A stretch of DNA of 32,000 nt. It comes from Trichodesmium erythraeum IMS101. GTDB lineage: Bacteria; Cyanobacteriota; Cyanobacteriia; Cyanobacteriales; Microcoleaceae. The DNA lies in the NCBI RefSeq assembly GCF_000014265.1, contig NC_008312.1, positions 5,580,001 through 5,612,000 of the forward strand. The letters are read 5' to 3'. Positions 2,315-26,026 of the stretch are shown piece after piece (within the stretch, counting starts at the first letter, position 1; every line of letters begins with the position of its first letter). The notes below the pieces were generated by a model, which was given only the letters and a program-made list of their open reading frames with translations, was not told the origin of the DNA and did not search any database. Made by a program: the position numbers and the translations under genes.

Positions 2315-2841
2315 GGCATTTGGACTTAAGATCAAAAAGTTTGTTTAATACCAATTATGAAAAATATTGCTACATTATTTTTTTTTGTCTTCAAAAAACT
2401 TAATTGTAGGCATTGTTTGATGATGAAAAGTAATATTACTAATTTATAGAGAAGTTATAAGTAAGGTTAAGTTTGATAAATAACCTTTGGCTTTTTTGAT
2501 TATGATCAACTTTAGTGATATAGAAATTTTAAATGATTCGATTTAGATTTGCTATATTTTGATAGTATTAGATTATGTCTAATTTGATTCTGGGGGTAAC
2601 AAGCAAGTTATAAAGTAGATATAATAATAATTTGAGATAATAAATTGAATAATAATTTCATAAAATAAAAGAAAGCTTATTAAGAATGGGGTCGTGGCGA
2701 TCACCAATTTACTAAGTGCTAAAGTGCTACTACCTGATTTGATTACTTTTTCATTTAAGCTAATGGGTAAAATAGTTAAAAATATAATCAAATAAAAGAT
2801 AATTTGTAAACTTTACCAAAGTCTTGATTACTTAGTTTTTA

Positions 2842-4248
2842 GCAATTACTTCTTTCCCGCTAGAAGATTAACAATTATATAGTATAAATATTACAAAAGC
2901 CAATTAGAGCAGCAAAACAATAAAACCTTTATCCGATATAATGGTTCAATGATCGCGATCTTAGACACTGAATTACGGCAAAAACTATAATACAAACCTC
3001 AAAAAGAATATTTATCAGAACAATTATTGGTAGTTATTTATACTTTAATCTAGCCATGCTAAAAGTACGCAAATATGCCGAATTATATTTTGCATTTGTT
3101 CAGGTGTCTGAAGTTGATTAAATTGAAAAAAATTTTCTAATTTATCTTAAAATTGTTGAATATTTATATCCCAGGAAAGGTGATGCAACAGTTTAAGTCT
3201 TAAAATATGAATAATATATTCAACTCAATTAAAATTAGGAAAATATGTTGGAGTATGAATAAAATCTACAACAATTTTATCTGAATATTTGAGCATTAAT
3301 GAGATGAAATTTTAATTGAGATTTCATTTTATTTTTATCTGTCGAGTCCAGATCTAAAATAATAGTCAATTTATCAAATCATTCTGTTAAAAAATCTTGA
3401 TCTCATTGTAAAAAGTAATCCGAAACTTCCTCTGCTTTAGATTTTTCTTTTAATTTTAAAGACTCTTGAGCTGTAAAGGCATCAACTGAAATCATTCCAT
3501 TCAGTTTATTTCTACATCCCTTCTCATTACTGGCTACTTCAGGACCTGTCTTTTTTTTTGCCTATCCGTAAAAAATGCTTGGGCGCTCATAAACAGCAAA
3601 TTCATCAAAAAATACTATTTTTTCTTTCTTTATTTTAGATACCAATTTTTTGAGACTTAAAATAAATATCTTTTACTGTTATTGGCTGGTATTAGGATAA
3701 TTTCTATGGGCTTTTTGAGCTGATAAATTTAATTCATTGAAAATTTCATATATTCTTGTTGTTTTCAGTTTTACTCCCCATCTTAATTCAATAACATTAC
3801 TAATAATTTTACCAGCTCCATTTGTTTCTATCTACCACATAATCTCTGGGTAATTCTTCCAGTATCATTATTTTTAATTCCTATTTCTGTTTTATATTTA
3901 ATCTTGATGATACTTGGTGAGTGATTAGTTATATTAAATTCTTTAACCCTCCTTCTAAAAATTTATCTATCCAAGTAGATAAAGTTTGGTAATGACAATC
4001 TAATAAATCTGATACTTCTGCTCTATTTTTTCCTTCATACAAGTATTTAATTGCCAATAATCTTTTCCTTAAATATTCTTTTTGACACTTGTAGTAAAAT
4101 TATGACCACAATTCTAAATATAATTGGCGATCGCCTAACCTAAAAGTTCTATTCCCTAAAGATTTAATCATGATTCATTCCTTATTATTTATCACGTAAT
4201 ATATATTATTACATAATAGGTAATTTTCTAGCGGGAAGAGAGTAATGC
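2842..4248 (-). mobile_element. Decayed IS630-family insertion sequence with recognisable terminal inverted repeats
   Basis: The left end GCAATTACTTCTTTCCCGCTAGAA (2842-2865) is the imperfect reverse complement of the right end TTCTAGCGGGAAGAGAGTAATGC (4226-4248). The interior carries a fragmented IS630-type transposase on the minus strand. Confidence 0.65.
3040..4171 (-). pseudogene. IS630-family transposase pseudogene with multiple frameshifts and stops
   Basis: The minus-strand ATG (reverse complement of 4169-4171) gives MIKSLGNRTFRLGDRQLYLELWS*. A shifted frame then reads KEYLRKRLLAIKYLYEGKNRAEVSDLLDCHYQTLSTWIDKFLEGGLKNL, a typical IS630 N-terminal HTH. Further on, FDEFAVYERPS...NKLNGMISVD is DDE-core-like but interrupted by stops. 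No ORF of 60 aa or more survives. Confidence 0.6.
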
Positions 4249-4420
4249 AATCAGATGAATATAAAATAGAAATTAGGGCGTTCCTGAAGCGCGGGCATGA
4301 TTTTGAAAAAGATCGATCACCAATATAAGTCATACCAATTTTATTAGCCTACATTACTTAATCTTGGTAAGATTATATAATTTCATTATTGAGTATGATG
4401 TGTAGCTATACTCAAGTAAA

Positions 4421-4447
4421 TTGACATTAAAATTATTCGGATATAAT
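4421..4447 (+). promoter_or_regulatory. Candidate sigma70-type promoter of the lysozyme-peptidase gene
   Basis: TTGACA at 4421-4426 and TATAAT at 4442-4447, with a short 15-nt spacer. It lies about 60 nt upstream of the GTG start. A GAGGA Shine-Dalgarno sits at 4493-4497, 8 nt before the GTG at 4506. The AT-rich context makes chance matches likely. Confidence 0.3.
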
Positions 4448-4505
4448 GTAATTATATTGAATTAAATAATACTGTAAACAGATGTTTTTACTGAGGATAT
4501 AAACT

Positions 4506-4670
4506 GTGGACGAAAAAAATCTAATTCCTCAAAGCGGCCTTGATTTAATTAAGGAATTTGAGGGGTATGGGAAAGAACTTCCTGATGGCCGAGCACAAGC
4601 GTATGCCGATCCCATTTATGGGTGGGAAGTTGCTACAATTGGCTATGGAACTACCAAGTATCCCAATGGT
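4506..4670 (+). CDS. Exon 1 of 4: GH24 (phage-type) lysozyme / C39-like peptidase fusion protein. Spliced product 465 aa.
   Basis: GTG start with SD. The translation MDEKNLIPQSGLDLIKEFEGYGKELPDGRAQAYADPIYGWEVATIGYGTTKYPNG carries the GH24 signature (EFEG catalytic Glu, AY.D..G..TIGYG). The track ORF continues as VRLVGH*, which is read-through into the intron starting GTGCGAC at 4671. Confidence 0.85.
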
Positions 4671-5265
4671 GTGCGACTCGTTGGCCATTAAACCTTGAAC
4701 TAGGATATAAATGGCTGTTCCAAGTCAACACATGAGGATAATCTCGACTTGTGAATAACTCTTATGACCTTGTAGGTGAGATTCCTACTGCCTTGTTGTT
4801 GGGTTGACAGCGTAGGCCACAGGGTAGAGACTGAACATCAATCCCTGAAGCTGGTCTAAACGAGGTCAAAGCTTTAACTACCAAATAAGTGAGACTTCTA
4901 GCAAAGACTGACAAGTAGACGAACAGAAAGGTAATAAAACTCTCGTCAGATATGACCATTCCAAAGGTAGTTATGGAATGTAGGACGAATGTCAGAGGGT
5001 CTATGGATAACAATATGCCATTGTTGTTATCAAACAACTGTAAAGAACCCTCCGGGAGATTTTACCCTACTAAATCAGTCGTAACAAAGGCATAAGGGAA
5101 CGAGGAAACCTCTTTAAGACACCTAAGTATATAGGTCGATAACTTAGGAAGCCATTCAAGGTAAATCTACGCAAAAAAATCGTAGGTCTTAGGGAGAGTA
5201 GGATTGGGTAAAAAGTATAATTAGCAGACGTACCCACTGTTAAACGTGATGTAAGGTAACAATTA

Positions 5266-6115
5266 GTGATGAATAAGGCTAAAACACTAAAAAGACATAA
5301 TGGTAATTCTAAACCATTTTTAAGTGTGGCATGGGATACAGACGATACACCTTTACAATTCTCTGTATGTCTCAATCTTAAGTGGCAAGACATAGAATGC
5401 AAGGGTGTTCTCAAGAATGTATTTAAGTTGCAAAAGTTAATTTACAGAACATCCAGCTGTGGCGAAATCCCCAATATGCCTGAATACTAAAAACTTCTGA
5501 CTTCTAGTTATTACCCTAGGTTACTAGCTGTTTGGTGCGTGATACAGGACAAACAAGATCAAAAAACTGCTGGAGTGGATGGGATGAAAAATTTACTTTC
5601 ACTACAGGGGAACTTCACTGTAAGGTTTACTTATTTAAAATTACACATACATAGCAATATTGTAGCGGTATGAGTAATGAGTGAAAACTATGTGAAGAAA
5701 TAGCTTGATCTTCCTTGCGATGTTGTTGCCTGAATAGCGAAGATAATTTACAGACTGCGGTTTGCGGTATATGGGTAAAACACCGAAGCTAGCTCCAAAG
5801 CTTATACAATTCCACAGGTAAGTTTGGATAAGTTTAGTAGAACTGTAAAAACCGAAGTTAAAAAACTACTTAAAAGTTAGAAAAATAGTTACGCATTTTG
5901 TGGGTTAACTTTAAGACCAATTGACCTAATAGAGGTAGAGAATATAATGCCTGGGTCTAAAAGTGGTGACAACAAATGTAAGAATAAATGATTGTTGCAC
6001 AAAATTGCCACGATACTAAAACTGTCTTAGATTACAATAGTTGTCTAAAACTGAAGTTACAGGAATTACCTGATAATTATTTATGGATGGATGACGCTAA
6101 GACAGGGATGTACCC
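5266..6115 (+). pseudogene. Remnant of the intron-encoded RT/maturase in intron 1
   Basis: MMNKAKTLKR...FKLQKLIYRTSSCGEI matches the N-terminus of the intact IEP at 7676 and then stops. ...KTAGVDGMKN follows in another frame. The central RT and X domains are deleted. A degenerate HNH tail is present (YAFCGLTLRPIDLIEVENIMPGSKSGDNKCKNK*LLH). Confidence 0.75.
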
Positions 6116-6138
6116 TTGAATTAGGGCGTTTAGGAGAG

Positions 6139-6172
6139 AAGCCGTGTGAGGTGAAAGTCTCACGCACGGTTT
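6139..6172 (+). ncRNA. Domain V of intron 1
   Basis: AAGCCGTGTGAGGTGAAAGTCTCACGCACGGTTT has the AGC triad, a GAAA tetraloop and a 2-nt bulge. The closing pair is A-U here and G-C in intron 2, a compensatory change. Confidence 0.8.
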
Positions 6173-6215
6173 TGAAGACGAGTCTGGTAAGGTAACTTAC
6201 TGGGCTTAGTTTAAC

Positions 6216-7082
6216 AGTAAAGTTCAAAGAAACGATATTATTACTTCTGTTGAAGCACAGAAGTATTTAGCCTGGGAAGTTGAAGAAATTTGTAAACCTG
6301 CCTTAGAAAGAATACCTACTTGGTCTCAGATGAATCAAAATCAAAAGGGAGCACTTTATAGTTTTGCCTACAACTTGGGTGCAAATTTTTATGGTGGAGC
6401 GAATTTCCAGTCTATTACAAGGGTTTGTGATACTGTTTCTAGGTGGAAAGATCAAGGTTGGATAACAGAGCAATTTGAAAAATATCGAAACCCTGGTTCT
6501 GCTGCTGAAGAGGGTTTGCGGAGACGCAGACATGCTGAAGCTAAACTATTTTGTAAGCCTGCAGAAAATATTGAGTTTCATCAAAATAAAATGGAGGAAA
6601 CAATGGAAATTACTACTGTAAGTTTTACCAATTCAACTTGGTTAAAATCCAAACCTATACAATCTTCAGAATTGTCGAACAATCAGAAGATATTTGTCAG
6701 ACAGGAAGACAAAATCAAGGTAAAGGGAGTATTTCCAGATGCTAAACAACATACTTTACTTACATTAGAAAAGTCAAAATTAGCAGCTGATGGAAAGACC
6801 TCTCTTGAAAAAGTTTATGCTTATACACCTCACCTAAAATTAGAGCAACCACAAAATGAGCGGGTGAAAAAGCTAGATGTGCCTTATTTCTCTCAATTAG
6901 ATAATTCAACTTTGCTTTTTGGTGCAGGAAGTCGCCAGTGTAATTTAACTTCTTGTTCTATGTTCTTAGCGGCTTTAAAGCCACAGTTAGTAAAAGAATC
7001 AAAAATTGATAATTACGAAGAATTTGAAAGTTTTTATGGGGAAAAATTAGTAAAATATGGTGATACCACTAACCATGATGCA
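6216..7082 (+). CDS. Exon 2 of 4: rest of the lysozyme domain, a linker or middle domain, and the N-terminal half of the C39-like peptidase domain
   Basis: In frame with exon 1: ...YPNG|SKVQRNDIITSVEAQKYLAWEVEE...MNQNQKGALYSFAYNLGANF...GLRRRRHAEAKLF (GH24). Later LDVPYFSQLDN...RQCNLTSCSMFLAAL looks like a C39_2-type catalytic Cys region. Length is 867 nt (289 codons). It ends ...NHDA just before GTGCGAC at 7083. Confidence 0.85.
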
Positions 7083-7675
7083 GTGCGACTCGTTGGCCAC
7101 TAAACTAGGAAACTAGGTATACATGGCCGTTCCAAGTCACCACATGAGGACAACCTCGACTTGTGAATAACTCTTATTACCTTGGTGGTGAAATTCCATC
7201 CGCCTTGTTGTTGGGTTGACAGCATAGACCACAGGGTAGCGACTGAACATCAATCCCTGAAGCTGGTCTAAAAGCGGGAAAATACCAGTTACCGAGGAAC
7301 GATACCGCAAGCAAAGGCTGACAAGTGGACGAACAGGAAGGTAATAAAACTCCCGTGAGGTCGAACCATTCCAAAGGTAGCTATGGGATGTAGGACGAAA
7401 GTCAGGGGGTCAACGAACATAAGTATTGCTTTGCTTATGTTAACAATCATATAGCACCCTCCGGGGGAGTTTACCCCACTTAAGTTGGCCGTAATAAAGG
7501 AATAAGGGAACGAGGAAACCTCTTTAAGACACCTAAGTATATAGGTCGAAAACTTAGGAAGCCATTCAAGGTCAATCTGCACAAAGTTGCAGGTCTTGGG
7601 GAGAGTAGGATTGGGTAAGAAGCTCATTGAGCAGACGTACCCACTGTTAGACGTAATGTGGAGTAATAATTAGCA

Positions 7676-9340
7676 ATGAATAAAGCTAAAACCCTAAAAA
7701 GATGTTTGGGAAACCCTAAACCATTTTTAAGCGTGGCGTGGGATACAAACGATATACCAAACCCATGTAGTGTTAATCCTAATTTCAAATGGAAAGACAT
7801 CAATTGGAAGAAGGTAGAAAAGTATGTATTTAAGTTGCAAAAATTAATCTACAGAGCATCCAGCCGTGGCGAAATCCGCAAGGTGCGTAAATACCAAAAA
7901 CTTCTGACCAAAAGTTATTACGCTAGGTTGCTAGCTGTTAGGCGCATAACTCAGGACAATCAGGGTAAGAAAACTGCGGGTATAGATGGTATAAAAAATT
8001 TACCCTCTATGCAGAGATTTAACCTGGTAGACTTATTAAAGAGACATCGCTTCAAAGCAAGCCCAACCCGTAGAGTCTGGATACCAAAACCAGGAAAGGA
8101 TGAAAAGCGACCGCTCGGAATCTCTACAATGTACGACCGTGCATTACAAGCCCTGGTAAAGCTAGGTAGGTCACCAGAATGGGAAGCACACTTTGAACCT
8201 AACAGCTATGGCTTGAGACCAGGACGGTCAACACATGATGCTATTGCAGCAATCTATGTCAGCATCAACAAAAAACCAAAATACGTTCTAGATGCTGACA
8301 TATCCAAATGTTTTGACCGAATTAACCATGATGCGTTGTTGAGAAAAATAGGACGAACACCCTACAGACGCCTAATTAAACAATGGCTCAAATCCGGGGT
8401 ATTCGATAACAAACAATTCTCAGACACTCTGGAAGGTACACCACAGGGAGGGGTGATATCAACCTTACTAGTAAACATCGCCTTACACGGGATGGAAAAA
8501 TGTCTAGAAAAATACGCCGAAACTCTACCGGGTAAAAAGCGTGACAATAAACAGGCATTATCCTTAATACGCTATGCTGACGACTTCGTTATCCTACACG
8601 AAGACATCAAAGTAGTAATGCAGGCAAAAACCGTAATACAGGAATGGTTAAACCAGGTAGGATTAGAGCTAAAGCCAGAAAAAACCAAGATTGCTCACAC
8701 CCTGGAAGAATACGAAGGAAATAAACCCGAATTTGACTTTCTGGGGTTCAACATCAGGCAATATGAAGTTAAGTCAACCAATCAAGGATTCAAAACAATA
8801 ATCAAACCATCATCCAAGAGTGTCAAAACTCATTATCGGAAACTGGCGGATAGATGTGACAAGAACAAAACCGCCCCCGCAAAAGCTTTAATAGCTAAAC
8901 TCAATCCGATAATAAGGGGATGGGCCAATTACTTCTCCGCCATAGTTAGTAAGAGTACATTCAATAAGTTGGATATGCTTTTGTGGAAAAGGCTAGGTCG
9001 ATGGGCAAGTAGGAGGCACTCGAACAAGTCGGCCAAGTGGGTTAAAGAAAAGTATTTCCCTCGCTACAAAGAAACCAGGAACTGGATACTTAATGATGGC
9101 GAATATATACTCAACCAACACCTTGACGTGCCTATAATAAGACACGTCAAAGTGAAAGGTAATAAATCCCCATTAGACGGTAACTGGACTTATTGGAGTA
9201 GTAGAATTGGCAAACATCCAGGCGTAAGGAAAGAAGTCACAACGCTGCTAAAACGGCAGAAAAATAAATGCGCATTTTGTGGGCTAACCTTCAGGTCAAA
9301 CGACCAAATGGGAAGTAGACCATATAAAACCAAGATCTGA
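7676..9340 (+). CDS. Group II intron reverse transcriptase/maturase (IEP). RT and X domains are intact. The C-terminal HNH domain is frameshifted.
   Basis: 554-aa ORF with RT motifs (KTAGIDG, RPLGISTMYDRALQ, PQGGVIS, RYADDFVIL), the maturase/X motif (IRGWANYF) and the start of the HNH domain (CAFCGL). The rest of the HNH domain continues in the +1 frame, from the GGG run at about 9310-9312 to the stop at 9519-9521: EVDHIKPRSEGGDNTYKNKQLLHRHCHD. Confidence 0.9.
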   Translation: MNKAKTLKRCLGNPKPFLSVAWDTNDIPNPCSVNPNFKWKDINWKKVEKYVFKLQKLIYRASSRGEIRKVRKYQKLLTKSYYARLLAVRRITQDNQGKKTAGIDGIKNLPSMQRFNLVDLLKRHRFKASPTRRVWIPKPGKDEKRPLGISTMYDRALQALVKLGRSPEWEAHFEPNSYGLRPGRSTHDAIAAIYVSINKKPKYVLDADISKCFDRINHDALLRKIGRTPYRRLIKQWLKSGVFDNKQFSDTLEGTPQGGVISTLLVNIALHGMEKCLEKYAETLPGKKRDNKQALSLIRYADDFVILHEDIKVVMQAKTVIQEWLNQVGLELKPEKTKIAHTLEEYEGNKPEFDFLGFNIRQYEVKSTNQGFKTIIKPSSKSVKTHYRKLADRCDKNKTAPAKALIAKLNPIIRGWANYFSAIVSKSTFNKLDMLLWKRLGRWASRRHSNKSAKWVKEKYFPRYKETRNWILNDGEYILNQHLDVPIIRHVKVKGNKSPLDGNWTYWSSRIGKHPGVRKEVTTLLKRQKNKCAFCGLTFRSNDQMGSRPYKTKI

Positions 9341-9526
9341 AGGTGGTGACAACACATATAAAAACAAACAACTGTTGCACCGACATTGTCACGACAGTAA
9401 AACTGCATCAGACAAAGAGACATATCCTGAATTCAGGCCAAGGGAAGTTCCCGAAGGATATCAATGGGTTGATGATATGTTGATTCTGAAGCAGGATGTA
9501 CCTATGAAAAAGGACGTCTAAGAGAG

Positions 9527-9560
9527 GAGCCGTGTGAGGTGAAAGTCTCACGCACGGTTC
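9527..9560 (+). ncRNA. Domain V of intron 2
   Basis: GAGCCGTGTGAGGTGAAAGTCTCACGCACGGTTC is a canonical 34-nt domain V hairpin with the AGC triad, a GAAA loop and a CG bulge. Confidence 0.85.
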
Positions 9561-9603
9561 TGAAGACGAGTCGGGTAGGGTAACTTACCTGGCTTAGTTT
9601 AAC

Positions 9604-9648
9604 CAGACTAAAGCATTAAGAGATTTCGGAGTAGAAACTTATTTTTCT
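9604..9648 (+). CDS. Exon 3 of 4: a 45-nt micro-exon (15 codons) inside the C39-like peptidase domain
   Basis: CAGACTAAAGCATTAAGAGATTTCGGAGTAGAAACTTATTTTTCT encodes QTKALRDFGVETYFS. It is in frame with both neighbours and is flanked by the intron 2 3' end (..TTTAAC) and the intron 3 5' end (GTGCGAC at 9649). Confidence 0.8.
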
Positions 9649-10246
9649 GTGCGACTCGTTGGCTAATAAACTAGGAAACTAGATATAAATGGCCATCCCT
9701 AGTCAATATATGAGGATAACCTCGACTTGTGGATAACTCTTATGTCCTTAGTGGTGAAATTCCACCGCCTTGTTGCTGGGTAGAAAGCATAGGTCACGGA
9801 GTAGAGACTGAACATCAATCTCCGAAGCTGGTCTAAATGCGGACAAAGCTCTAACTATCAAAAGAGTGAGTTTGCTAGCAGAGGCTGAAATGTGGACGAA
9901 CAGGAAGGTAATGAAACTCTCGTTAAAGTTGACCATTCCGAAGATAGCTATGGAATGTAGGGCTTATAGAGTCAGGGGGTCAATGGATGACTATGTAGAA
10001 AAGTAGTCATTAGCAACCATACAGAACCCTCCGGGAGAATTTACCCCGCTAAATCAGTCGTAATAAAAGGCGTAAGGGAACGAGAAAACCTCTCTAAGAC
10101 ACCTAAGAATATAGGTCGAGAACTTAGGAAGCCATTCAAGGTCAATCTACGCATAGGGTTGTAGGTCTTAGGGAGAGTAGGATTGGGTAAAAAAGCATAT
10201 CTATGCAGACGTACCCACTGTTAGACGTAATGTAAAGTAATTAATA

Positions 10247-11990
10247 GTGATGAATAAAGCTAAAACACTAAAAAGAAAGCCTTGTAATTCAAAGCCCTTT
10301 TTAAGCGTGGCATGGGATACAGATGATATAACGTCCCAAGTGAGTGTCAATCCCAATCTCAAGTGGAAAGACGTTAATTGGAAACGGGCCCTGAAGAATG
10401 TATTTAAGTTGCAAAAGTTAATTTACAGAGCATCCAGCCGTGGCAAAATCCTTAAGATGCGCAAAGACCAAAGGCTTCTGAGCAAAAGTTATTACCTAAG
10501 GTTACTAGCTGTTAGGGGTGTGACTCAGGATAATCAAGGGAAGAAAACTGCGGGTGTAGATGGGATGAAAAAACCTTTCTCCAATGCAGGCATTTAACTT
10601 GGTTGACTTATTAAACACAGGCTACCTTAAAGCAAGTCTCACCCTAGAGTCACCGATACCAAAACTAGGTAAAGATGAAAAACGATCGCTAGGCATCCCA
10701 AGGATGTATGATAGGGGGTTACAACCCTTGATTAAGTTTGGTATGGAACCTTTTGAGGGAGGCACATTTTGAACCTAATAGCAAAGTATGTTCTGGGTGC
10801 TGATATATTTAAGTGTTTTGACTGGATATACTATGATGCACTGCTAAGAAAAATTGGTAGAACATCATATAGATAATTAATCAAAAAATGGTTAATGTCT
10901 GGAGTGTTTGACAACAATTAATTTGACCTACTCCTCTTGTTACCCTCCTAATGAAGGGATGGGGTTGGTTAACCAAAGGTAGGGGTTGTCTGACCTCTAA
11001 AGTGCAAACATAGTCCTACACTTTATGGAATAAAGGCTAATGGAATTTGTCGAAAAACTCCCTCTAAAATATTCAAGTGGGAAAACAGACAAAATGAGAT
11101 TAACGACACAGCCTATCCTTAATAGGCTATCCTGATGACTTTGTAATCCTACATGAGGACATCAAAGTAGTGCTACCAGCAAAAGCCTTAATACAGGAAT
11201 GGTTAAACCAAGTAGGATTATATCTAAGACTAGAAAAAACTAAAATTGCCCACACTCTTGAAGAATATGAAGGGAACAAACCCGGATTTGACTTCCTGGG
11301 TTTCAATCTTAGGTAAGGTCAGGTAAAGACAGCTAAAAATGGATATAAAACTTTGATTTAACCATATGCAAAGAGTATGAAAACTTATTATCGGAAACTA
11401 GCAGATATATGTGACTCTTGTATAACTGTACCAGTTGAAGTTTTAATAGCAAAACTAAATTTGGTAATTAGAGGATGGGCTAACTACTACTCAACCATAG
11501 TCAGTAAAAAGGTATTCCATAAAATGGATATGCTTCTATGGAAACCCATAAGGCACTGGGCAAGGTCGTTGGTATCCAAATAAGAACCACACTTGGGTAA
11601 AGAAAAGGTATTTCCTAAAAATTGAGAATGATAACTAGATTCTTGATACCGGCAAATATATGTTAGATAAACACTCAGATGTACATACTTAGTTGGGCAT
11701 ATTAAGTTAATGGGTAATAAAGCTCCCTATGATGGTGACTGGAATTATTGGAGTACCAGAACAGGTAAATATCCAGGGGTAAGGAAAGAAGTCTCAACGC
11801 TGTTAAAACAGCAAAAGAATAAATGCGCATTTTGTGGATGACACTTTTGACCAACGGATATAATTGAGGCTGACCAAATCATTCCTAGGTCTAAAGGCGG
11901 TAACAACACCTATAAAAATCAACAGGTGTTAGACCTAAATTGCCACGACGTTAAGAGTGCCGAGGATTTAAAAGGAGTTAACCATTAGGA
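10247..11990 (+). pseudogene. Decayed intron-encoded RT/maturase in intron 3
   Basis: Track ORFs 10247-10597, 10584-10772 and 11377-11583 each match successive parts of the 7676 IEP (MMNKAKTLKR..KTAGVDGMK; LGIPRMYDRGLQ; IRGWANYYS). They are separated by frameshifts, stops and a small deletion near 10780. The HNH tail carries stops (CAFCG*HF*PTDIIEADQIIPRSKGGNN). Confidence 0.8.
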
Positions 11991-12051
11991 CTCATTAGGT
12001 CTAAGGTGAAATTTTAAGGATGTACCCATGACTTTGGGGCGTTTAGGAGAG

Positions 12052-12086
12052 GAGCCGTGATGAGGTGAAAGTCTCACGTCCGGTTC
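12052..12086 (+). ncRNA. Domain V of intron 3 (aberrant)
   Basis: GAGCCGTGATGAGGTGAAAGTCTCACGTCCGGTTC is 35 nt. Relative to intron 2 it has an extra A in the 5' arm, and CACGCACGG has become CACGTCCGG. By hand pairing this gives a U-C mismatch in the lower helix. Confidence 0.6.
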
Positions 12087-12141
12087 TGAAGACAAGCAGA
12101 CTCTATAAAGGGCAACCGGAAATGGGTTTACTTAGTTTAAC

Positions 12142-12462
12142 TATACACTCTCTATTGCTGATTTAATACTTTGTCTAAAGGCTGGGTATCCAGTAGTTAT
12201 AGGAGTAGCTTATAAGAGTAGCGGACATATAGTTGTAGCAACAGGATTTGATCTGGATAAAGAGCAAGTTTTTGTTCATGATCCTTATGGTATCAGGTAT
12301 GGTGCTAGTAATAATTATGAAATAGGTGCTTATGCTGCGTATGATCCTTATAGTTTTACCCTTCTTGAGCAAATATGGGTTGATATGGGCTCTGAGGCAG
12401 GATGGGGAAGAGTTACTCTTGCTGTAGATAATAAAAAGACTGGTTTGCCTGATAACCTCTAA
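12142..12462 (+). CDS. Exon 4 of 4: C-terminal half of the C39-like peptidase domain
   Basis: YTLSIADLILCLKAGYPVVIGVAYKSSGHIVVATGFDLDKEQVFVHDPYGIRYG...WGRVTLAVDNKKTGLPDNL*. The GH(I/V)VV..G.D and V.DPYG motifs fit the His/Asp half of a C39_2-type papain-like fold. The TAA stop is at 12460-12462. The track shows only an antisense ORF here (12175-12372). Confidence 0.8.
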   Translation, partial: YTLSIADLILCLKAGYPVVIGVAYKSSGHIVVATGFDLDKEQVFVHDPYGIRYGASNNYEIGAYAAYDPYSFTLLEQIWVDMGSEAGWGRVTLAVDNKKTGLPDNL

Positions 12463-12722
12463 AAATAAGCTCTAAAAATAATATTTGCCTTCTAAGGTTA
12501 TTGATGGTTATTGAGCTATTATACTTATCTAAAAATACCAGTTTTTAAGGGGAAATAAGGGTTTGAGAACCTTTTGAAGAAGAAGCCTATTAGGAATTTA
12601 TTTTCTCTAGGCAGAACTTAGGCATAAACTGAGTTATGACGCAAGATTTCGTCATTTGAAAGCTAACTATTTGGGCAGTCAACCCTATTTATTGGTTAGT
12701 TTGCTTAAGTCCTAATCAAATT

Positions 12723-12769
12723 AAATTTATCTACCTGTATTTTCAGGTAGATAAATTTATTTATTTTTT
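12723..12769 (+). terminator. Rho-independent terminator, probably for the intron-containing gene
   Basis: A perfect 15-bp stem, AAATTTATCTACCTG (12723-12737) with CAGGTAGATAAATTT (12744-12758), and a TATTTT loop, followed by the T-rich tract ATTTATTTTTT. Confidence 0.6.
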
Positions 12770-13047
12770 GATGAAAATTAGGATGCTATTGGGCTACAGA
12801 AAAATTAAAAGTTAAAAGTAATTGCTCAATGAATTTTCAGCTTTGAAATGCTACGGGAACAGTATTTTTCAATGTGCTATACCAAGTATTCTTTCCTAAT
12901 AATTCAACAAAGGGACTTGGAATATCACCAAAGATACTACAAACAGTAAAATTATACTCCAAGGAGTAAAAATAAGGCTCAAAAGTAGAGATATTAATGC
13001 TATTCCTGCTGTTACTACTTTGACAATCATATATAGTAATCCGATCA

Positions 13048-13419
13048 TCAATCGCGCTGAATAGCTAATGATTGTAAAATCCCTTCAGTTTCTTCCAGAG
13101 GACTGAGGCCTTCTCTTAATAAATTTTCTCTCAAAGATAATTGGCAGGCATCCTCATCATTGAGAGAGCGGATAACTACAGGGACAGAAGTTAGTCCAGC
13201 TATTTTTGAAGCTCTTAAACGCCTTTCACCTGCAACCAACTCGTATAAATTGTTGTCGGTAGATCGTGCTAATAATGGTTCAAGTACGCCAAACTGAGAA
13301 ATAGAAGTACTGAGTTGACACAGTGTTTCTTCGTCAAAATAAGGATGTGGTTGAGAGGAAGGTAGAACAATTTTAGCTATGGAGTCTCTTTTTGTCCTAT
13401 TGAATCTTGCTTCTGGACA
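13048..13419 (-). pseudogene. ParB N-terminal-domain gene fragment with no usable start and a truncated C-terminus
   Basis: The open minus-strand frame reads ...IAKIVLPSSQPHPYFDEETLCQLSTSISQFGVLEPLLARSTDNNLYELVAGERRLRASKIAGLTSVPVVIRSLNDEDACQLSLRENLLREGLSPLEE... This is the classic ParB box pattern (GERR.RA). The frame opens right after a stop and ends about 120 codons later, without the HTH or dimerisation domains. Confidence 0.6.
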
Positions 13420-13510
13420 TTATGTGATATTTCTGATGCAGAGGTGTGTTTTGTGTCAAGTATAAAGTTGTGGAGGGAATTCGTTGAGTCATTTCTATGA
13501 AGCTTTGGAT

Positions 13511-13795
13511 TTAGAGGAGTTGGATTGAAGAAGACTTAGTTTTTTGAGTAGAGGGTTTTATTTCTATTCCCGCATTAGAAAAGACTTCTTTGAATAATGA
13601 TTCAAACTCAGATGGTGAGGAAGCAGCTATAGAACTCGACGTATAAAAAGCAGTGATGTTTTGTCCAGGAGCATCAGCCAGGCATTGTCTTTGATAGATG
13701 AAAGTTGACAAAGTGGAAATGTCCAATTCTCCTAAAACCTGCTGGGATCCTCTGAGGCGAATCAAGCTATGAAGTCTAAAATTTGGCCAAACATA
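13511..13795 (-). pseudogene. Possible ParA-like C-terminal fragment (tentative)
   Basis: ...TFIYQRQCLADAPGQNITAFYTSSSIAASSPSEFESLFKEVF resembles the C-terminal ..I.qR.a.adA...G........s.aa.E...L..E. region of ParA/Soj ATPases, and it sits directly upstream of the ParB fragment. The upstream part is replaced by the IS relic. Confidence 0.3.
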
Positions 13796-13861
13796 AAATT
13801 CTTTTCAGTTAATAGTTAGGCGATCGCTAGCCAAGAAAAAAGGTTAATCAAGGCAGGAGGA

Positions 13862-14625
13862 GGAATAAAAAAGTCTTTCAGCAAGACAGAAGAGATAATG
13901 TTGACCTTATATTATTTGCATCATGTACCAAAATTTCAGCGACTAGGAGCAATATTTGGAGTTAGCTCATCAACAGCAAATAATATTTTTCAGGATTTGG
14001 ATAGATATTTTGAGGTAATTATTACCATCTAGTTTACTAGAGGAATTCTCGGAAAAAGAAAACGAATATTTATGGATAAAAGAGGCTTTGACAGAAATAG
14101 AATTGATAGTTGATAGTATAGAGCAGGATAGGGAAAAGCAAAAAAAAATGATGATAAACAGAAAAAGTATTATTCAGGAAAGCCAAAAATTTATAGGGTT
14201 AAAAATCAAATAGTAATCACAGAAAAGGCAGAAGAAATTATAGATGTAATAGTAGGAAAAAGAGGTCGAGAAGGTGATATAAAGTTATTCAAAAAAACAC
14301 AAAAAAAAGTTTGATATAGAAGAAATACTTCAAAGAGACAAGGGGTATCAATGTGGTCAAAAAATTAACAAGCTAAACAAAAAAAATAAGCCATAAAATG
14401 CCAGAATAAGTAAAGAAATAGAATCAAAAAAAAGATAAAAAAATAATATTTGTAAGATAAAAAAAATAATATTTGTAGAAAAGATTATAAGACTGATAAA
14501 AATATTTATATTGGCACGAGAAAGATTGAGGTTGAAAGAGACTAATTATGACAAGTAATTTTAAAATATATGATTTAGTAAGATGAATAAGAGGAGAATT
14601 TATATTATTATAAATCATAAGTTTT
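13862..14625 (+). pseudogene. IS5-family (DDE_Tnp_4 / Harbinger-like) transposase pseudogene
   Basis: The plus-strand frames read KKSFSKTEEIMLTLYYLHHVPKFQRLGAIFGVSSSTANNIF..., ...IDS**YRAGQ..., KKYYSGKPKIYRVKNQIVI...GKRGREGDIKLF and ...IIFVEKIIRLIKIFILARERLRLK. They follow the order of DDE_Tnp_4 motifs but are interrupted by many stops and A-run frameshifts. Confidence 0.55.
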
Positions 14626-15811
14626 GCTCTAAAAAAAAGAAATAAATAACCAGATAAACATGGTGAATAATTAACAGTAACTATCTGTAATACTATAAAG
14701 CCCGTAAAAAATGACTATCTGGTGGAGCTGGCGATCGCTCCCCAAAAGATATTTACAGTAAGGGAAGTGATAATTTTTGGAGATGTCTATTAATAATTTT
14801 GACATAGTAACTAAATGCAGCTTCTCTTAAACTGGAAATATAGAAACTTTCATATTTTGTATTGTTTAAACGCCAGGGTATTTGAGCAGGTTCTTTTAGG
14901 TTAATGGATTCAGGAATGACAAGTAAATATTTGATAGGATGTGTCTTTTTAGATTTAATTTATTCAGTTATAACTTTTGATAAAATCAAATAGTGGCAAC
15001 CAATGAGTAAAAACAGAAGAACAAAAGCAGATTTTTTGGGTTCTTAACGTTGATTGTTTTTTGCATTCTATTATGTCGAATGCTTGCACCAGGATATAAC
15101 TAACTAACTAACGATAGGAGTATAACCTTCTATTAATTTATGGTTTTAGGGTTACATAATTTATGACTAAAGTTTTGATTAATATAAGAGTTCAACTGTT
15201 TGTAATAAAGACGAGTTTTTACACCATAAACTTGAAAAAATATTGAGGTTTTGGAATTATTTACCTTTCAGTAATAGACAAAATTGCTGATAAATTACTA
15301 ATTTTATTAATAAACAAAGTAATAAATGAGGGTAAGGTTTTCAGCAATTTAGTTCCTGATGCTTTGTATTTTTTCAGCAATTGTTGTAAAAATTTGTTGT
15401 GTTGTAATAATGTAGTATTTAGTGCTTTATCTACATAAATTTTATTGATTAATTGCAGAGATTAAGGATTTAATACTGTTAATTAAATCAGTTCTATTTT
15501 ATCTACTTAAAATTCTTATTTAAGCAACCAATTTAATACTATTTTTCTTTTCGATTCTAGTTTACAATAACGTTATATGGAGTCAATTTTTATGATATTT
15601 TACCTACTCTTTGAGATGGCTTAGAAAATATTTTTTCGAGTTTTTTTTAGAAATATATAAATTCTTAATAGTGGTATAATTTCAATATCATAATTTTAGA
15701 TAATTGTAGATAAAAATTGAGACATTTTAATAATTATTATGGAGAATCATTGTAATTATAATATATAATATAAATAAAAAAATTATTGGCAACAAATACT
15801 GTCAAAAATAA

Positions 15812-17071
15812 ATGCTTAGAATACACAGATTAGTAGAAATATTTCCACCTATGACTCCAGAGGAATTTGAGAGTCTAAAAAAAAGTATTCATCGTAACGG
15901 TCAACAAGTACCTATTAAAGTTTTAAAGTTAACTAATGAAATTATTGATGGAAGACATCGATACCAAGCTTGTCAAGAATTAAATATTGAACCTTTAATT
16001 GAATGGATTGAAGATGATTTGAAAGAAAAAAGGTTACGCTCTCTAGTTGTTAAACTTAATCTGGATCGGAGGCATTTAACACCTTCTCAAAAAGCTTGGA
16101 TTGCTGCTAGTTTTGCTGATTTAGAAAGAGGACAGTTTCATGGAAATAGATATACTGAAACCTTACATTCTAATATCGGCAATTCTGCCAATACTAAACT
16201 ACCTCTAGGGCAAACTCAATCTGCAATTGCTAAATGGTTTGGTTCATCTGAAAGAGCAATTCGACAAGTAAAAAAAATCAGACGTGAAGCTCCTGAATTC
16301 AATAATTATATATATATGGGAGAGGTGAAAATTGATGATGCTTACTGCTTACTATCTGAAGTTCCAGAAGTGAGGCAGCAGGTATTAAAGAGGTTCAATG
16401 AAGACAAATCTTTGAATAAGAAACCAAAAAAGCTTTGCCAATATAAAAATGACATACTTAAAGAACAAGCTCAGTCTAATATAAAGAAGGCGATCGCTAA
16501 TAACTTTTTAATAGAAATATCAGAATCATTGTTAGTACAATTAGGAGAAACTTGGCAACTTGGTAGACATCAATTAAGTTGCTGTGACTCTTCTACATGG
16601 AATCCTCCTTATGCAAAACTAGCCTTTGCCGACCCACCATATAATTGTGGAATAGCAGAATGGGATTTCCATTTTAAATGGAAGCATGACTGGTTAATCA
16701 ACAAAGCTGATTTAGTGTTAGTCACACCAGGGGATGAATCTTTAGCAGGATTCCTCAAAAAAACTGAGATGCCTTATAGATGTACAATTGCTCACTGGAT
16801 AAAAAATGGTATGAGCAAGGGAGCAATGGGCTATGGTAATCATATATTGGGATTAGTATTTTGTAAGGAATCTACTCCTTACAAAGTTACAGGAGTCAGA
16901 AACCAAAGTTTTTCTACTGGTGTAATTAAATTAGACGAGACTAATGAGACTAGTCATCCTGGCAGAAAACCTTTAGATTTTTTAGTAACTTGGATAGAAA
17001 AGTTAACTAAACCAGGGGATTTTATTATTGATCCGTTTTTAGGCAGTGGTACTACTTTATTTGCAGCATAA
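15812..17071 (+). CDS. ParB/Srx-like N-terminal domain fused to an N6/N4 DNA methyltransferase (beta-class motif order). It ends at an in-frame TAA that cuts off the last 34 ancestral codons.
   Basis: N-terminus: EIFPPMTPEEFESLKKSIHRNGQQVPIKV...IIDGRHRYQACQEL...NLDRRHLTPSQKA (ParB-N/Srx-type). C-terminus: motif IV DPPY at 16631-16642, then HPGRKPLDFLVTWIEKL and motif I DPFLGSGTT at 17030-17056. After the TAA (17069-17071) the same frame continues ATNRTCYRVKMSPKYFTEIIGRW... to the TAA at 17174-17176. Confidence 0.8.
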   Translation: MLRIHRLVEIFPPMTPEEFESLKKSIHRNGQQVPIKVLKLTNEIIDGRHRYQACQELNIEPLIEWIEDDLKEKRLRSLVVKLNLDRRHLTPSQKAWIAASFADLERGQFHGNRYTETLHSNIGNSANTKLPLGQTQSAIAKWFGSSERAIRQVKKIRREAPEFNNYIYMGEVKIDDAYCLLSEVPEVRQQVLKRFNEDKSLNKKPKKLCQYKNDILKEQAQSNIKKAIANNFLIEISESLLVQLGETWQLGRHQLSCCDSSTWNPPYAKLAFADPPYNCGIAEWDFHFKWKHDWLINKADLVLVTPGDESLAGFLKKTEMPYRCTIAHWIKNGMSKGAMGYGNHILGLVFCKESTPYKVTGVRNQSFSTGVIKLDETNETSHPGRKPLDFLVTWIEKLTKPGDFIIDPFLGSGTTLFAA

Positions 17072-17272
17072 GCAACTAACAGAACTTGTTATCGAGTAAA
17101 GATGTCTCCTAAGTATTTTACAGAAATAATAGGTAGATGGTTAGTATCAAATAAAGAAAAATCTGTTAGGATTTAACAAATTAAAGTAATCATGTGCTAG
17201 TGTATTTTTACAACTAAATAAGGACTTCAATCTACTCAACAGAAGGATTTAATTAATAACTTCCATCCTAGA

Positions 17273-18328
17273 ATGGAAGAGTTAATGAGAAAAATACAGG
17301 AAAGCAAAGATAAAGATAACATCAGAGAATGTCTCTTACAAAACAAGCATATTTACGAATATAAAGGTGAAGCTAGTGAAGAAGAAGTATTAGGAGTTGA
17401 TGCAGCTACAGCTTTTTGTGACTATGGAGAAATATCAACGGCTTTAGCTACAGGAGTTGTTTCTTCTACTTCAGAAAATGTCAAACCAGTGTATAAATAT
17501 AAAGCTGTTTATGGTACATCTAGTGAAACTTTTTCTAGGGCAACTAATTACTTAAGATGTTGGTCTGAATTAGCTGCATTAAAATATGCTACAGAACAAG
17601 ACACTTGGGTTTTGTATGATGGGAGCTTTACAAGTATTAATTTTGAAATGGGCAAATGGGCATCTGTAATGCCAAAAGAAGGAGATATATCTCGTGATTT
17701 TGTGGAATCAGAACTACTAACTGACTTATTTGTTGAGTCTATTAAAAGTGAAGATTCGGATTGGTTTACAGTATTTGGAGATAGAAAATTAAATAAGGTA
17801 ATTTCAGTTGGGAAAAGAGGGATTAGTAAATACTACTCAACGAATGTAATTAAAGATTTTGAGATAGAAGATACTGCTTTTCTCCCCTCTGATAAATTTA
17901 TTTTAGGCACAGTTTTGCAAGCTAATGAGTATACAAAATCTTTGTCTTATGAGCAAGTATTTGTCAAATCACATGGCTCAGGAACGCCTGGTTATGGTCA
18001 TCCAGGATTAAAGTCTGAAGACCGTTTTAATTCAATGCAAAATGACGTGGAAAGAACATATAAAAATTTACAAATTTTGCATTTTAAACCCTGGCCTTGG
18101 TCGCCTGTTTTGAAGATAGAATATAATAAGGAACGTTGCGAGTTAAATGATGTATTAGCAGTTATAAAAGGGCAAACTAAGACTCGTTCAATTCTTGAAC
18201 CAATGGCTTTGTATTTAGCGGATTTATTAGCTAAACAAACTCAATCAGTAATGAATTTTTATGGTGATATAAATACTCGCCGTTATCCTAAACTATTTTC
18301 AGCATATCGAACATCAAAAAGAGGTTAA
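17273..18328 (+). CDS. NurA-like nuclease (tentative family assignment)
   Basis: 351 aa. The ordered acidic motifs resemble the NurA RNase-H-like fold: LGVDAAT, RCWSELAAL, WVLYDGSFTS and the C-terminal EPMALYLADLLAK. Its stop is 1 nt before the start of the HerA-like gene, the usual nurA-herA arrangement. Confidence 0.55.
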   Translation: MEELMRKIQESKDKDNIRECLLQNKHIYEYKGEASEEEVLGVDAATAFCDYGEISTALATGVVSSTSENVKPVYKYKAVYGTSSETFSRATNYLRCWSELAALKYATEQDTWVLYDGSFTSINFEMGKWASVMPKEGDISRDFVESELLTDLFVESIKSEDSDWFTVFGDRKLNKVISVGKRGISKYYSTNVIKDFEIEDTAFLPSDKFILGTVLQANEYTKSLSYEQVFVKSHGSGTPGYGHPGLKSEDRFNSMQNDVERTYKNLQILHFKPWPWSPVLKIEYNKERCELNDVLAVIKGQTKTRSILEPMALYLADLLAKQTQSVMNFYGDINTRRYPKLFSAYRTSKRG

Positions 18329-18329
18329 A

Positions 18330-20006
18330 ATGACAAACATTGTTGAGATTGCTTCAATCAATAGTTATAAAGGTGGAAAATTAAATGTAACTATTCGTTC
18401 TCAGGCAACCAGAAAGAGCTTAACTGGTAAAATGTGCGAATTTAAAATCGAAACATCAGACCAAGGTACACTTAGAGTATTATGTCGAATCAACTCAGTA
18501 GATATGGCTAACCCTATCCATGAGAATCGTGGTTTTCAACAAGCGATCGCCGATCAAGGCAAACTCCAATATTATTCTGGTGATTGTGATGTAGTAACAG
18601 CAACAGTTGAAATTATTTCATGTATAACAGCAGATAAATTGATACCTACAAGTATTGCTTGTCCTCCACAGTCGGGAACGCCTTTAAGGGAAATAAAAGG
18701 AAATAGTATTATTGACTTTCAACCTGAGAAACAATATAAAGGGACAATTGGAAATTTAATTGATGCACCTGAGATGCCCATGTCAATAACAGTTCGACAC
18801 TTTGGTGCTTATGACAAAGGAGGTTATGGAGAAGCAAAACATAGTGTAGTTTTTGGTCAAAATGGTTCTGGAAAAACTGTTATTGCCTTGGCTAAAATAG
18901 CCTGTGAATTGGTTCAAAATCCGCAAATGGGTTGCTTAATTCCTGATACAGCAGGGGATATTGCTAAACATGGTTCTCATGATAGAGGTGATTTTAAGTT
19001 TAGTTTTTTAGAGTTGCTGGATAAAGGAGGTAGATTAGCCGAACAAATTAATATAGAAGATATTCGTCTAGTTTCCAAAACTTTTTTCAAGCAAATGTTA
19101 ACGCCTATCATCCGACAAAAACTTAATACGATGCCAGATAATGCTACGCGTTTAACAGACAAAATTACCGAAAGCTTATTTGATAAAACAGTTGATATTA
19201 CTAAGGCAACACCTGATGTAATTTTAAACATGATTGTTGAGAATGTAGCGACCGTTTTTTCAACTAAAGCTAAACAAAAGGAAAAAACAGAACAAGCTCA
19301 GGAGCTTACTCAACAACCCCTTAAAAGAGAGTTTATCAAAACTTATAATGCCAACGTCGTTCATTTTTTTGAAGGAAAGTATGCTTTGCCAGAACTCGTT
19401 GATGGTTTTCTTGATAGAGGGCGGGTGATTTTACTCAATATGTCTAAACTATCGGAGCAAGCACAGCGCAGTGTAATGTATGAGATATTTGCTTATGTAA
19501 AATCAAAGTCGGAAAAGGACTATAAAGCTTTTAGTAAAACCCGAAATGGCTTAATTGTTCTTGATGAAGGACCTCGGTGGTGTCCGCAATCAGGTGGAGA
19601 TGAAATAACCAGTACAATAATAGACGCTTACAATACTACCCGAAAGCTGGGTATTGGTTGGATGATTATTTCTCAAAGAATTACTGCTATTGATAAAAAT
19701 ATCTTAGCACAAGCTCATACAAAATTTGTCGGGCGTGGAATGGGTATAGGTGCTGATGCTGAATATATTAGTACTTTATTTGGTAAAGAAGGGTTAGTTA
19801 TGTATGATTCATTAAGACTTAGGGGAGGTTATTTCTGGTTAGCAACAGGACATCAGGTTAACTATGGTCAAGGTTCTCAATATATGGCTTTTGATTCTTT
19901 TGGGGGAAATGCAACAGCTAAGATAATTAAAGCTAATCCTCATATTTGGCAAAATCAAGAAGAGATGTCTTTAGTTGTGGGAAGGGATGATAAAACTTTA
20001 TCCTAA
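18330..20006 (+). CDS. HerA-like (DUF87 / FtsK-HerA superfamily) ATPase
   Basis: 558 aa. The N-terminal region looks like a beta-barrel (HAS-barrel). Walker A, HSVVFGQNGSGKT, lies at 18855-18878. Walker B, LIVLDEGPRW, lies at about 19551-19577. ISQRITAIDKNILAQAHTKFVGR matches the HerA QRP..i...vlsq.. segment. The gene is translationally coupled to the upstream ORF (TAAAATG). Confidence 0.75.
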   Translation: MTNIVEIASINSYKGGKLNVTIRSQATRKSLTGKMCEFKIETSDQGTLRVLCRINSVDMANPIHENRGFQQAIADQGKLQYYSGDCDVVTATVEIISCITADKLIPTSIACPPQSGTPLREIKGNSIIDFQPEKQYKGTIGNLIDAPEMPMSITVRHFGAYDKGGYGEAKHSVVFGQNGSGKTVIALAKIACELVQNPQMGCLIPDTAGDIAKHGSHDRGDFKFSFLELLDKGGRLAEQINIEDIRLVSKTFFKQMLTPIIRQKLNTMPDNATRLTDKITESLFDKTVDITKATPDVILNMIVENVATVFSTKAKQKEKTEQAQELTQQPLKREFIKTYNANVVHFFEGKYALPELVDGFLDRGRVILLNMSKLSEQAQRSVMYEIFAYVKSKSEKDYKAFSKTRNGLIVLDEGPRWCPQSGGDEITSTIIDAYNTTRKLGIGWMIISQRITAIDKNILAQAHTKFVGRGMGIGADAEYISTLFGKEGLVMYDSLRLRGGYFWLATGHQVNYGQGSQYMAFDSFGGNATAKIIKANPHIWQNQEEMSLVVGRDDKTLS

Positions 20007-25999: not shown

Positions 26000-26026
26000 A
26001 AAAAGAGGCCATCATGGTCTCTTTTT
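26000..26026. terminator. Bidirectional intrinsic-terminator-like hairpin
   Basis: AAAAAGAGGCCA-TCA-TGGTCTCTTTTT forms a 12-bp stem (one G-U pair) whose arms incorporate an A-run on one side and a T-run on the other. No adjacent annotated gene end is nearby: apcC ends 640 nt away and mutS starts 700 nt away. Confidence 0.3.

Follow-up and report, generated by a model that had tools for sequence, protein, structure and literature searches.

A bacterial lysozyme/C39 peptidase gene interrupted by three group II introns in Trichodesmium erythraeum IMS101

Does the region around Tery_3633 in Trichodesmium erythraeum IMS101 hold several small genes, as public annotation has it, or a single gene interrupted by three group II introns, as was proposed in a first-pass annotation of the sequence? 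The question concerns positions 4506-12462 of a 32,000-nucleotide stretch of this genome (NC_008312.1, positions 5,580,001 to 5,612,000 of the forward strand; hereafter the window). Exact-sequence look-up fixed the identity of the locus. The open reading frame (ORF) at 6330-7103 is 100% identical to 'hypothetical protein Tery_3633' (ABG52698.1), the ORF at 7676-9340 is ABG52699.1, an RNA-directed DNA polymerase, and the MutS gene (22599-25304) corresponds to ABG52710.1; the three proteins are those of T. erythraeum IMS101.

Part of the answer is already in the literature. By means of split RNA-seq reads, 17 group II introns in 10 host genes were reported to be spliced in vivo (Pfreundt et al. 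2014, Sci Rep 4:6187; PMC4143802). Table 2 of that paper enters Tery_3633, described as a 'phage related lysozyme', three times as an intron host: intron 1 without a maturase and with 18 split reads, intron 2 with a maturase, 8 split reads and a previous prediction, and intron 3 with a possible maturase and 3 split reads. The three-intron arrangement and its splicing in vivo have therefore been known since 2014, and the novelty with which the first-pass annotation had framed them falls away, while the split reads supply the RNA-level evidence that it had proposed to look for. Its remark that genes with several introns in Trichodesmium are mainly housekeeping genes is likewise inaccurate, since the same paper has as intron hosts both Tery_3633, with three introns, and a second lysozyme gene, Tery_4178. 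In a later paper, Tery_3633 again figures among the intron host genes, and its transcript level is reported to be responsive to the availability of iron (Fe') (PMC5776111).

Three group II introns within one reading frame

Removal of the three segments listed as introns in Table 1 joins exons of 165, 867, 45 and 321 nt into a 1398-nt ORF of 465 codons plus a stop codon, without an internal stop, and every coordinate proposed in the first-pass annotation holds. Because all exon lengths are multiples of three, all three introns are in phase 0. The read-through peptides of unspliced RNA are also as had been claimed, namely VRLVGH* in introns 1 and 2 and VRLVG* in intron 3. The predicted ligated junctions join CCCAATGGT to AGTAAAGTT, CATGATGCA to CAGACTAAA and TATTTTTCT to TATACACTC, and the corresponding junction-spanning peptides would read ...KYPNGSKVQR..., ...TTNHDAQTK... 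and ...ETYFSYTLSIADL....

All three introns open with GTGCGACTCGTTGGC and close with TTAGTTTAAC, and their ribozyme parts align along the whole length. Each begins with GTGCG(ACTCGTTGGC), in agreement with the 5' consensus GUGYG, and each ends ...TTTAAC, in agreement with the 3' AY requirement. An Rfam search of the whole window yielded only six matches, all to group II domain V or V/VI models. Those to RF00029 (group II domain V/VI), for which the gathering score is 40 bits, occur in all three introns (scores in Table 1) and stop exactly at 6215, 9603 and 12141, the proposed 3' splice sites. The common ends and the domain V that had been read from the letters in each segment are thereby confirmed. 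These segments are group II introns that genuinely interrupt one GH24/C39 gene, and the agreement of the evidence goes far beyond chance. A nested (twintron) arrangement was also considered and rejected, as intron-derived sequence in the window is confined to the three introns.

The joined exons encode two domains whose Pfam matches run across the junctions: Phage_lysozyme (GH24, PF00959) at residues 29-163 with 63.8 bits (cutoff 22.3), and Peptidase_C39_2 (papain-like, PF13529) at residues 275-408 with 59.4 bits (cutoff 24). A database search returned uninterrupted homologues of 465-469 amino acids at 77-81% identity, including those of Okeania sp. SIO3I5 and Trichodesmium sp. MO_231.B1, together with more distant two-domain relatives. 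In a nine-sequence alignment, eight uninterrupted homologues cover all three junctions without insertion or deletion, which is what the proposed exon joins predict. Invariant across this alignment are Glu19, Asp35 and Thr44 in exon 1, Gln296-Cys297 in exon 2, and His388 and Asp406 in exon 4. The first three we take to be equivalent to Glu11, Asp20 and Thr26 of T4 lysozyme. The first-pass annotation had placed the putative catalytic Glu, the Cys and the His/Asp in these same exons and had argued that a functional enzyme needs all three splicing events; the distribution of the catalytic-type residues over exons 1, 2 and 4 supports that argument. From its domains, the spliced product is predicted to be a cell-wall hydrolase that combines a GH24 muramidase with a papain-like C39-type cysteine peptidase. 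The protein has no obvious export signal.

Public annotation breaks this gene into a 61-aa hypothetical protein (4506-4691), the 257-aa Tery_3633 'lysozyme' (6330-7103) and a 102-aa 'C39 family peptidase' (12154-12462). The first is the read-through product of exon 1, annotated in several Trichodesmium genomes, and the last is exon 4, annotated apart in T. erythraeum genomes; the 15 codons of exon 3 are unannotated in all products seen. Identical fragmentation recurs across the annotations of many Trichodesmium metagenome-assembled genomes (MAGs). The annotation as three or four small genes is wrong, and one 465-aa product should replace them.

The three introns differ in the state of their ORFs, in agreement with the published maturase status of no, yes and possibly for introns 1, 2 and 3. 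Intron 2 alone encodes an intact reverse transcriptase (RT)/maturase. This intron-encoded protein (IEP) passes the NCBIfam model TIGR04416 (group II intron reverse transcriptase/maturase) with 336 bits against a cutoff of 300, and among Protein Data Bank (PDB) structures it matches the T.el4h maturase/RT best (6me0_C, E = 2e-101, over residues 37-537). Its length of 554 aa is repeated in several independent assemblies. Because the RT and maturase domains are whole and the HNH domain is frameshifted, the IEP should, as judged from its sequence, retain the maturase role and lose the endonuclease role. On three-frame translation, the intron 3 ORF has stops and frameshifts throughout and is still recognisable.

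Pairwise identity among the three introns is 80-82% in the ribozyme core, at about equal distances. They are homologous, but did not arise by recent copying inside this gene. Intron 2 agrees with the Okeania copies around intron positions 190-240, where introns 1 and 3 share another version. As a candidate class we propose the chloroplast-like (CL)/IIB type, on the grounds that the IEP is nearest to the IIB T.el4h protein, that RVT_N is present, and that candidate columns for a third exon-binding site (EBS3) exist.

Upstream of the start codon, candidate expression signals were read from the sequence (Table 1). The promoter scan that was used needed a spacer of 16-18 nt, so the candidate with a 15-nt spacer went uncalled.

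Table 1. Features of the interrupted gene and its introns (window coordinates; paired bases counted over the positions compared)
Feature	Coordinates	Strand	Description
Candidate promoter	4421..4447	+	TTGACA 4421-4426, 15-nt spacer, TATAAT 4442-4447; about 60 nt before the start codon; predicted from sequence
Shine-Dalgarno-like GAGGA	4493..4497	+	8 nt before GTG start; predicted from sequence
Exon 1	4506..4670	+	55 codons; N-terminal GH24 part with Glu19, Asp35, Thr44
Intron 1	4671..6215	+	1545 nt; largely deleted, stop-ridden ORF remnant, no maturase; GTGCG 5' end; RF00029 at 6137-6215, 58.1 bits
Intron 1 EBS2	4949..4953	+	GATAT with exon 1 -13..-9 GTATC; 5/5
Intron 1 EBS1	5017..5023	+	GCCATTG (loop 5014-5023) with exon 1 -7..-1 CAATGGT; 7/7
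Exon 2	6216..7082	+	289 codons; rest of GH24, linker and N-terminal C39-like half, Gln296-Cys297; houses annotated Tery_3633 (6330-7103)
Intron 2	7083..9603	+	2521 nt; full-length, sole intact RT/maturase ORF of the three; RF00029 at 9525-9603, 60.9 bits
Intron 2 EBS2	7359..7363	+	GGTCG with exon 2 -13..-9 TAACC; 4/5
Intron 2 EBS1	7427..7433	+	TGCTTTG with exon 2 -7..-1 TGATGCA; 6/7, one U-U mismatch, two G-U pairs
IEP (ABG52699.1)	7676..9340	+	554 aa; RVT_N, RVT_1 and GIIM (maturase) by Pfam; frameshift ends the ORF inside the HNH motif
HNH remainder	9309..9521	+	Out-of-frame remainder of HNH endonuclease domain (WEVDHIKPRSEGGDNTYKNKQLLHRHCHDSKT...); three-frame translation
Exon 3	9604..9648	+	15-codon micro-exon (QTKALRDFGVETYFS) between introns 2 and 3
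Intron 3	9649..12141	+	2493 nt; RT/maturase/HNH pseudogene, multiply interrupted; domain VI insertion; RF00029 at 12050-12141, 47.8 bits
Intron 3 EBS2	9926..9930	+	AAGTT with exon 3 -13..-9 AACTT; 5/5
Intron 3 EBS1	9997..10003	+	AGAAAAG with exon 3 -7..-1 TTTTTCT; 7/7
Exon 4	12142..12462	+	106 codons and stop; C-terminal C39-like half, His388 and Asp406

Exon recognition and lineage distribution

Group II introns of this family could be compared across several insertion sites. Six further members (80-88% identity) were gathered from Okeania and other Trichodesmium MAGs, where they occupy different insertion sites. A contig scan with the 14-mer GTGCGACTCGTTGG was unspecific and gave mostly chance matches in unrelated phyla, with at least about 12 useful cyanobacterial loci among the matches listed, none of them from IMS101 itself. 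Pairing between exon-binding sites (EBS) in domain I and intron-binding sites (IBS) at the exon ends was ambiguous at AU-rich sites when evaluated with RNAduplex, and a whole-hairpin test for EBS1 was too permissive. A fixed-register test was therefore used.

A covariation scan identified EBS2 in a variable segment of 5 nt with conserved flanks at intron positions ~277-283, whose partner is exon positions -13 to -9. A candidate EBS2 at intron positions ~219-226 was dropped once the scan had favoured this location. EBS1 occupies nucleotides 4-10 of the 10-nt loop that caps an 8-bp stem; its partner is exon positions -7 to -1. In the fixed register, EBS1 and EBS2 together pair with the intron's own exon at 12/12 positions in introns 1 and 3 and at 10/12 in intron 2, whereas non-cognate combinations average 4.7 pairs. 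With all nine family members and their different insertion sites included, the permutation p value for cognate pairing is below 1e-5. The ideal site for intron 2 would be CGACC-N-CAAAGCA, compared with the actual TAACC-A-TGATGCA. In two other Trichodesmium sp. MAG copies, L019 (312) and L097 (691), EBS1 pairs poorly with the 5' flank (3/7 and 2/7 positions) although the ribozymes look intact; these could be ectopic insertions, nested insertions, or assembly chimeras or misassemblies.

Relatives of the gene differ in their introns. In Trichodesmium MAG contigs (MAG_R01 GCA_023356555.1, GCA_028982485.1 and others), introns 1 and 3 are present and intron 2 is absent. The empty site in those MAGs reads ...CATGATGCA followed directly by CAGACTAAA..., which is exactly the predicted ligated junction, and exon 3 is contiguous with exon 2 in contigs L004 (2828-2890) and L005. 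The MAG introns 1 and 3 carry extra deletions of 331 and 838 nt, both of which fall wholly inside the ORF remnants. Since intron 2 is missing from several Trichodesmium MAGs outside IMS101, the gene in those lineages is left without any maturase of its own. Products of intron 2 were found in the T. erythraeum genomes IMS101, GBRTRLIN201 and 21-75. We infer that intron 2 is the most recent arrival of the three, because it has the sole intact ORF, the poorest match to its site and a restricted distribution. Precise loss of intron 2 from the other lineages is a possible alternative explanation for this distribution.

A homologous GH24-C39 gene on another contig (L073, Trichodesmium sp. jk18x7bins.61, JAJEAQ010000066.1; reverse strand, 1073-2400) carries an intron of the same family at a fourth, independent site. 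This homologue has 61% amino acid identity over the GH24 domain and is uninterrupted at site 1; its intron lies between ...RDNDRDPS and RTCFSSSCAM..., directly before the catalytic-Cys motif. Hydrolase genes of this type appear to have received this intron family repeatedly.

Selection and the likely mode of expression

Selection on the gene was evaluated by comparing IMS101 with a Trichodesmium MAG allele, with dead ORF remnants of the introns as the local neutral reference. The remnants carry 36 substitutions in 1409 positions (2.56%). The ribozyme cores of introns 1 and 3 carry 8 in 1460 (0.55%; Fisher p = 1e-5 against the remnants) and so have changed about five times more slowly than the ORF remnants of the same introns. 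The exons, with 16 substitutions in 1398 positions (1.14%), also fall below the reference (p = 0.007), and nonsynonymous sites alone differ from it as well (p = 0.008). Over longer distances, the ratio of nonsynonymous to synonymous substitution rates (dN/dS) is 0.33-0.36, and the value for the intron-bearing lineage equals that for a pair of intron-less orthologues. Purifying selection on both splicing competence and coding sequence is detectable, and the gene is in use. The ribozymes would be kept functional because loss of splicing would inactivate a host gene that is itself under selection.

These data bear directly on the suggestion that Tery_3633 is becoming a pseudogene in a decay-prone genome, with its introns tolerated and its splicing residual. 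A within-genus dN/dS of 0.8, calculated from 16 changes, could be taken in this sense, as could the loss of the neighbouring GH57 gene, the reduction of a downstream 68-aa gene to a remnant, and the low split-read counts in Table 2 of PMC4143802. However, the ORF is intact in both lineages and keeps all family-invariant residues, no deletion reaches into a ribozyme, EBS-IBS pairing has been preserved, exons and ribozyme cores have evolved more slowly than the dead ORF remnants, and the long-range dN/dS is that of intron-less orthologues. Selection on ribozymes and exons disfavours ongoing decay, which we regard as exceedingly improbable.

Taking together what is observed here or published (the gene structure, the in vivo splicing of all three introns, the EBS-IBS pairing, the status of the ORFs, and the conservation of ribozyme cores and exons), we consider it very probable that Tery_3633 is a functional gene carrying three selfish group II introns, two of them probably helped by a maturase acting in trans. 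A vertically inherited chromosomal hydrolase gene would have been colonised by three paralogous group II retroelements. The whole gene would be transcribed as one precursor, within which each intron would fold as a ribozyme, recognise its own 5' exon via EBS1 and EBS2, excise itself and leave an in-frame junction, such that only the triply spliced mRNA would encode the 465-aa enzyme. Intron 2 would supply an RT/maturase with a dead endonuclease domain. By analogy with other introns of this species, introns 1 and 3, having lost their ORFs, most likely rely in trans on this protein or on related maturases encoded elsewhere in the genome. The introns would then be tolerated selfish elements in a non-essential functional gene, with no dedicated regulatory role.

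Several points weigh against this account. The enzymatic activities of the host protein are predicted from domain homology only. Exon pairing is weakest in intron 2, with an internal mismatch among its 10/12 pairs, and intron 3 has both a domain VI insertion and the lowest Rfam score of the three. The helper maturase of introns 1 and 3 is proposed by analogy only, and self-sufficient splicing is conceivable. The within-genus dN/dS given above, obtained by the classical method from so few differences, is powerless alone against relaxed constraint. Finally, the published split-read counts in Table 2 of PMC4143802 are low and a single read cannot cover the three junctions at once, so that the amount of triply spliced mRNA and the protein itself are presumed rather than proven.

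The first-pass annotation had gone further and suggested that the dependence on triple splicing could act as a post-transcriptional gate on a potentially lytic protein. In its fuller form, this idea holds that three required splicing steps, two of them dependent on a maturase from the same transcript, delay, limit or condition the output of the hydrolase. The spread of catalytic-type residues over exons 1, 2 and 4 means that no enzyme would arise from partial splicing, and the split reads become fewer from intron 1 (18) through intron 2 (8) to intron 3 (3) (Table 2 of PMC4143802). Tery_3633 transcript levels are Fe'-responsive (PMC5776111), although this is a response in transcript abundance and not in splicing. 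A gate would also be in keeping with the lysozyme gene Tery_4178 as a further intron host (PMC4143802), with the fourth-site family intron in a GH24-C39 homologue of another Trichodesmium MAG, and with the coordinated expression through a shared maturase that has been proposed for dnaN/RIR (PMC12584367). However, the idea is purely speculative. Intron-free orthologues in Okeania and other relatives, along with the empty site 2 in MAGs, indicate that the gene works without these introns, and the intron set varies by lineage as opportunistic insertions would. The 'dangerous lytic protein' is itself an assumption, given a protein with no obvious export signal in a conserved chromosomal context. 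The gate is therefore unsupported as proposed, and we judge it very improbable.

A broader version of the same thought is that GH24-C39 genes of Trichodesmium and Okeania are recurrent, non-random hosts of one intron family, and that the need for several maturase-dependent splicing steps has come to serve the cell by confining hydrolase production to certain states, for example a given iron status or the programmed lysis of filaments or colonies. It builds on the three sites in Tery_3633, the fourth site in the MAG homologue, and the Tery_4178 intron, the family of which is unchecked. We give this version little credence.

Multi-intron protein-coding genes are rare in bacteria, and they offer a living model for the origin of spliceosomal-type gene structure and of trans-acting splicing factors. 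For Trichodesmium this importance has been acknowledged since 2003-2015, and for Tery_3633 itself since 2014. The additions made here are modest: selection on the exons and on the ribozymes of introns with dead ORFs, an intron complement that varies by lineage, and a correction of the annotation. Site 2 provides a natural intron-plus/intron-minus comparison between Trichodesmium lineages.

Genomic setting and relation to known systems

Both Okeania and a related MAG have genes for a P-type ATPase and a GH57 glycosidase, the intron-less lysozyme/C39 orthologue and a 68-aa gene, which follow one another in this order. In the window, the P-type ATPase gene occupies 5-2335 on the minus strand, continues past the window's edge and is well conserved (88% amino acid identity). 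This conserved synteny indicates that the gene is chromosomal and vertically inherited, not prophage-borne. An origin as a prophage endolysin was ruled out on the same grounds, and no phage genes adjoin the lysozyme/C39 gene in the window.

Other parts of the window differ from this order. Positions 2336-4505 form a 2.2-kb stretch without ORFs; an 893-aa GH57/DUF3536 gene fills this place in Okeania SIO3I5 and in Trichodesmium sp. MO_231.B1, and tblastn found no trace of it in 2336-4505. Of the 68-aa gene, only the C-terminal 43 residues can still be recognised, at 12899-13027 on the minus strand with 77% identity, and this gene looks decayed. Further downstream, a run of same-strand ORFs of 419, 351, 558, 242 and 104 aa occupies 15812-21922 on the plus strand. 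The 419-aa ORF has a ParB-like match at its N-terminus and a DNA-methylase match at its extreme C-terminus and is possibly truncated, the 558-aa ORF is a HerA/Zot-like P-loop ATPase, and the remaining three were assigned to no family; the run may be a mobile or defence-type island. A 67-aa CpcD-like gene called on related contigs corresponds by position to 26666-26869 on the minus strand of the window. Two stretches of ~3.3 and 3.4 kb (12463-15811 and 25305-28745) contain no ORF of at least 85 aa, no tRNA and no Rfam match, and they fit the roughly 40% non-coding content known for this genome.

How does this locus compare with systems already described? For the intron 2 protein, the nearest relative of solved structure is the RT/maturase of T.el4h, a group IIB intron of Thermosynechococcus (PDB 6me0, 6mec); it is also cyanobacterial and shares the RT-X-D-En architecture. 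The T.el4h family is known for its spread to many positions in the genome rather than for a threefold interruption of a single ORF. Unlike the T.el4h protein, the IEP in the window has a frameshifted En domain.

The Tery_3633 of Pfreundt et al. (2014; PMC4143802) is the identical locus, with no difference in kind. Their main text names the host a lysozyme and makes no mention there of a C39-like peptidase domain; supplements apart, it apparently does not discuss EBS-IBS pairing, the HNH frameshift or the lineage-specific occurrence of intron 2.

A parallel is found in dnaN, with four ORF-less introns, and nrdJ/RIR of the same species, genes that also have multiple related group II introns each, as related in PMC12584367 and PMC4649490. 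Those two papers cite Meng et al. 2005 as the precedent for a maturase acting in trans on the T. erythraeum dnaN/RIR introns, and in their accounts the maturase of a related intron, that of RIR, is either presumed or demonstrated to serve the ORF-less copies. Tery_3633 differs from the dnaN/RIR system in that its candidate helper maturase lies inside the same gene, in intron 2, and in that the host is a predicted cell-wall hydrolase rather than a replication gene.

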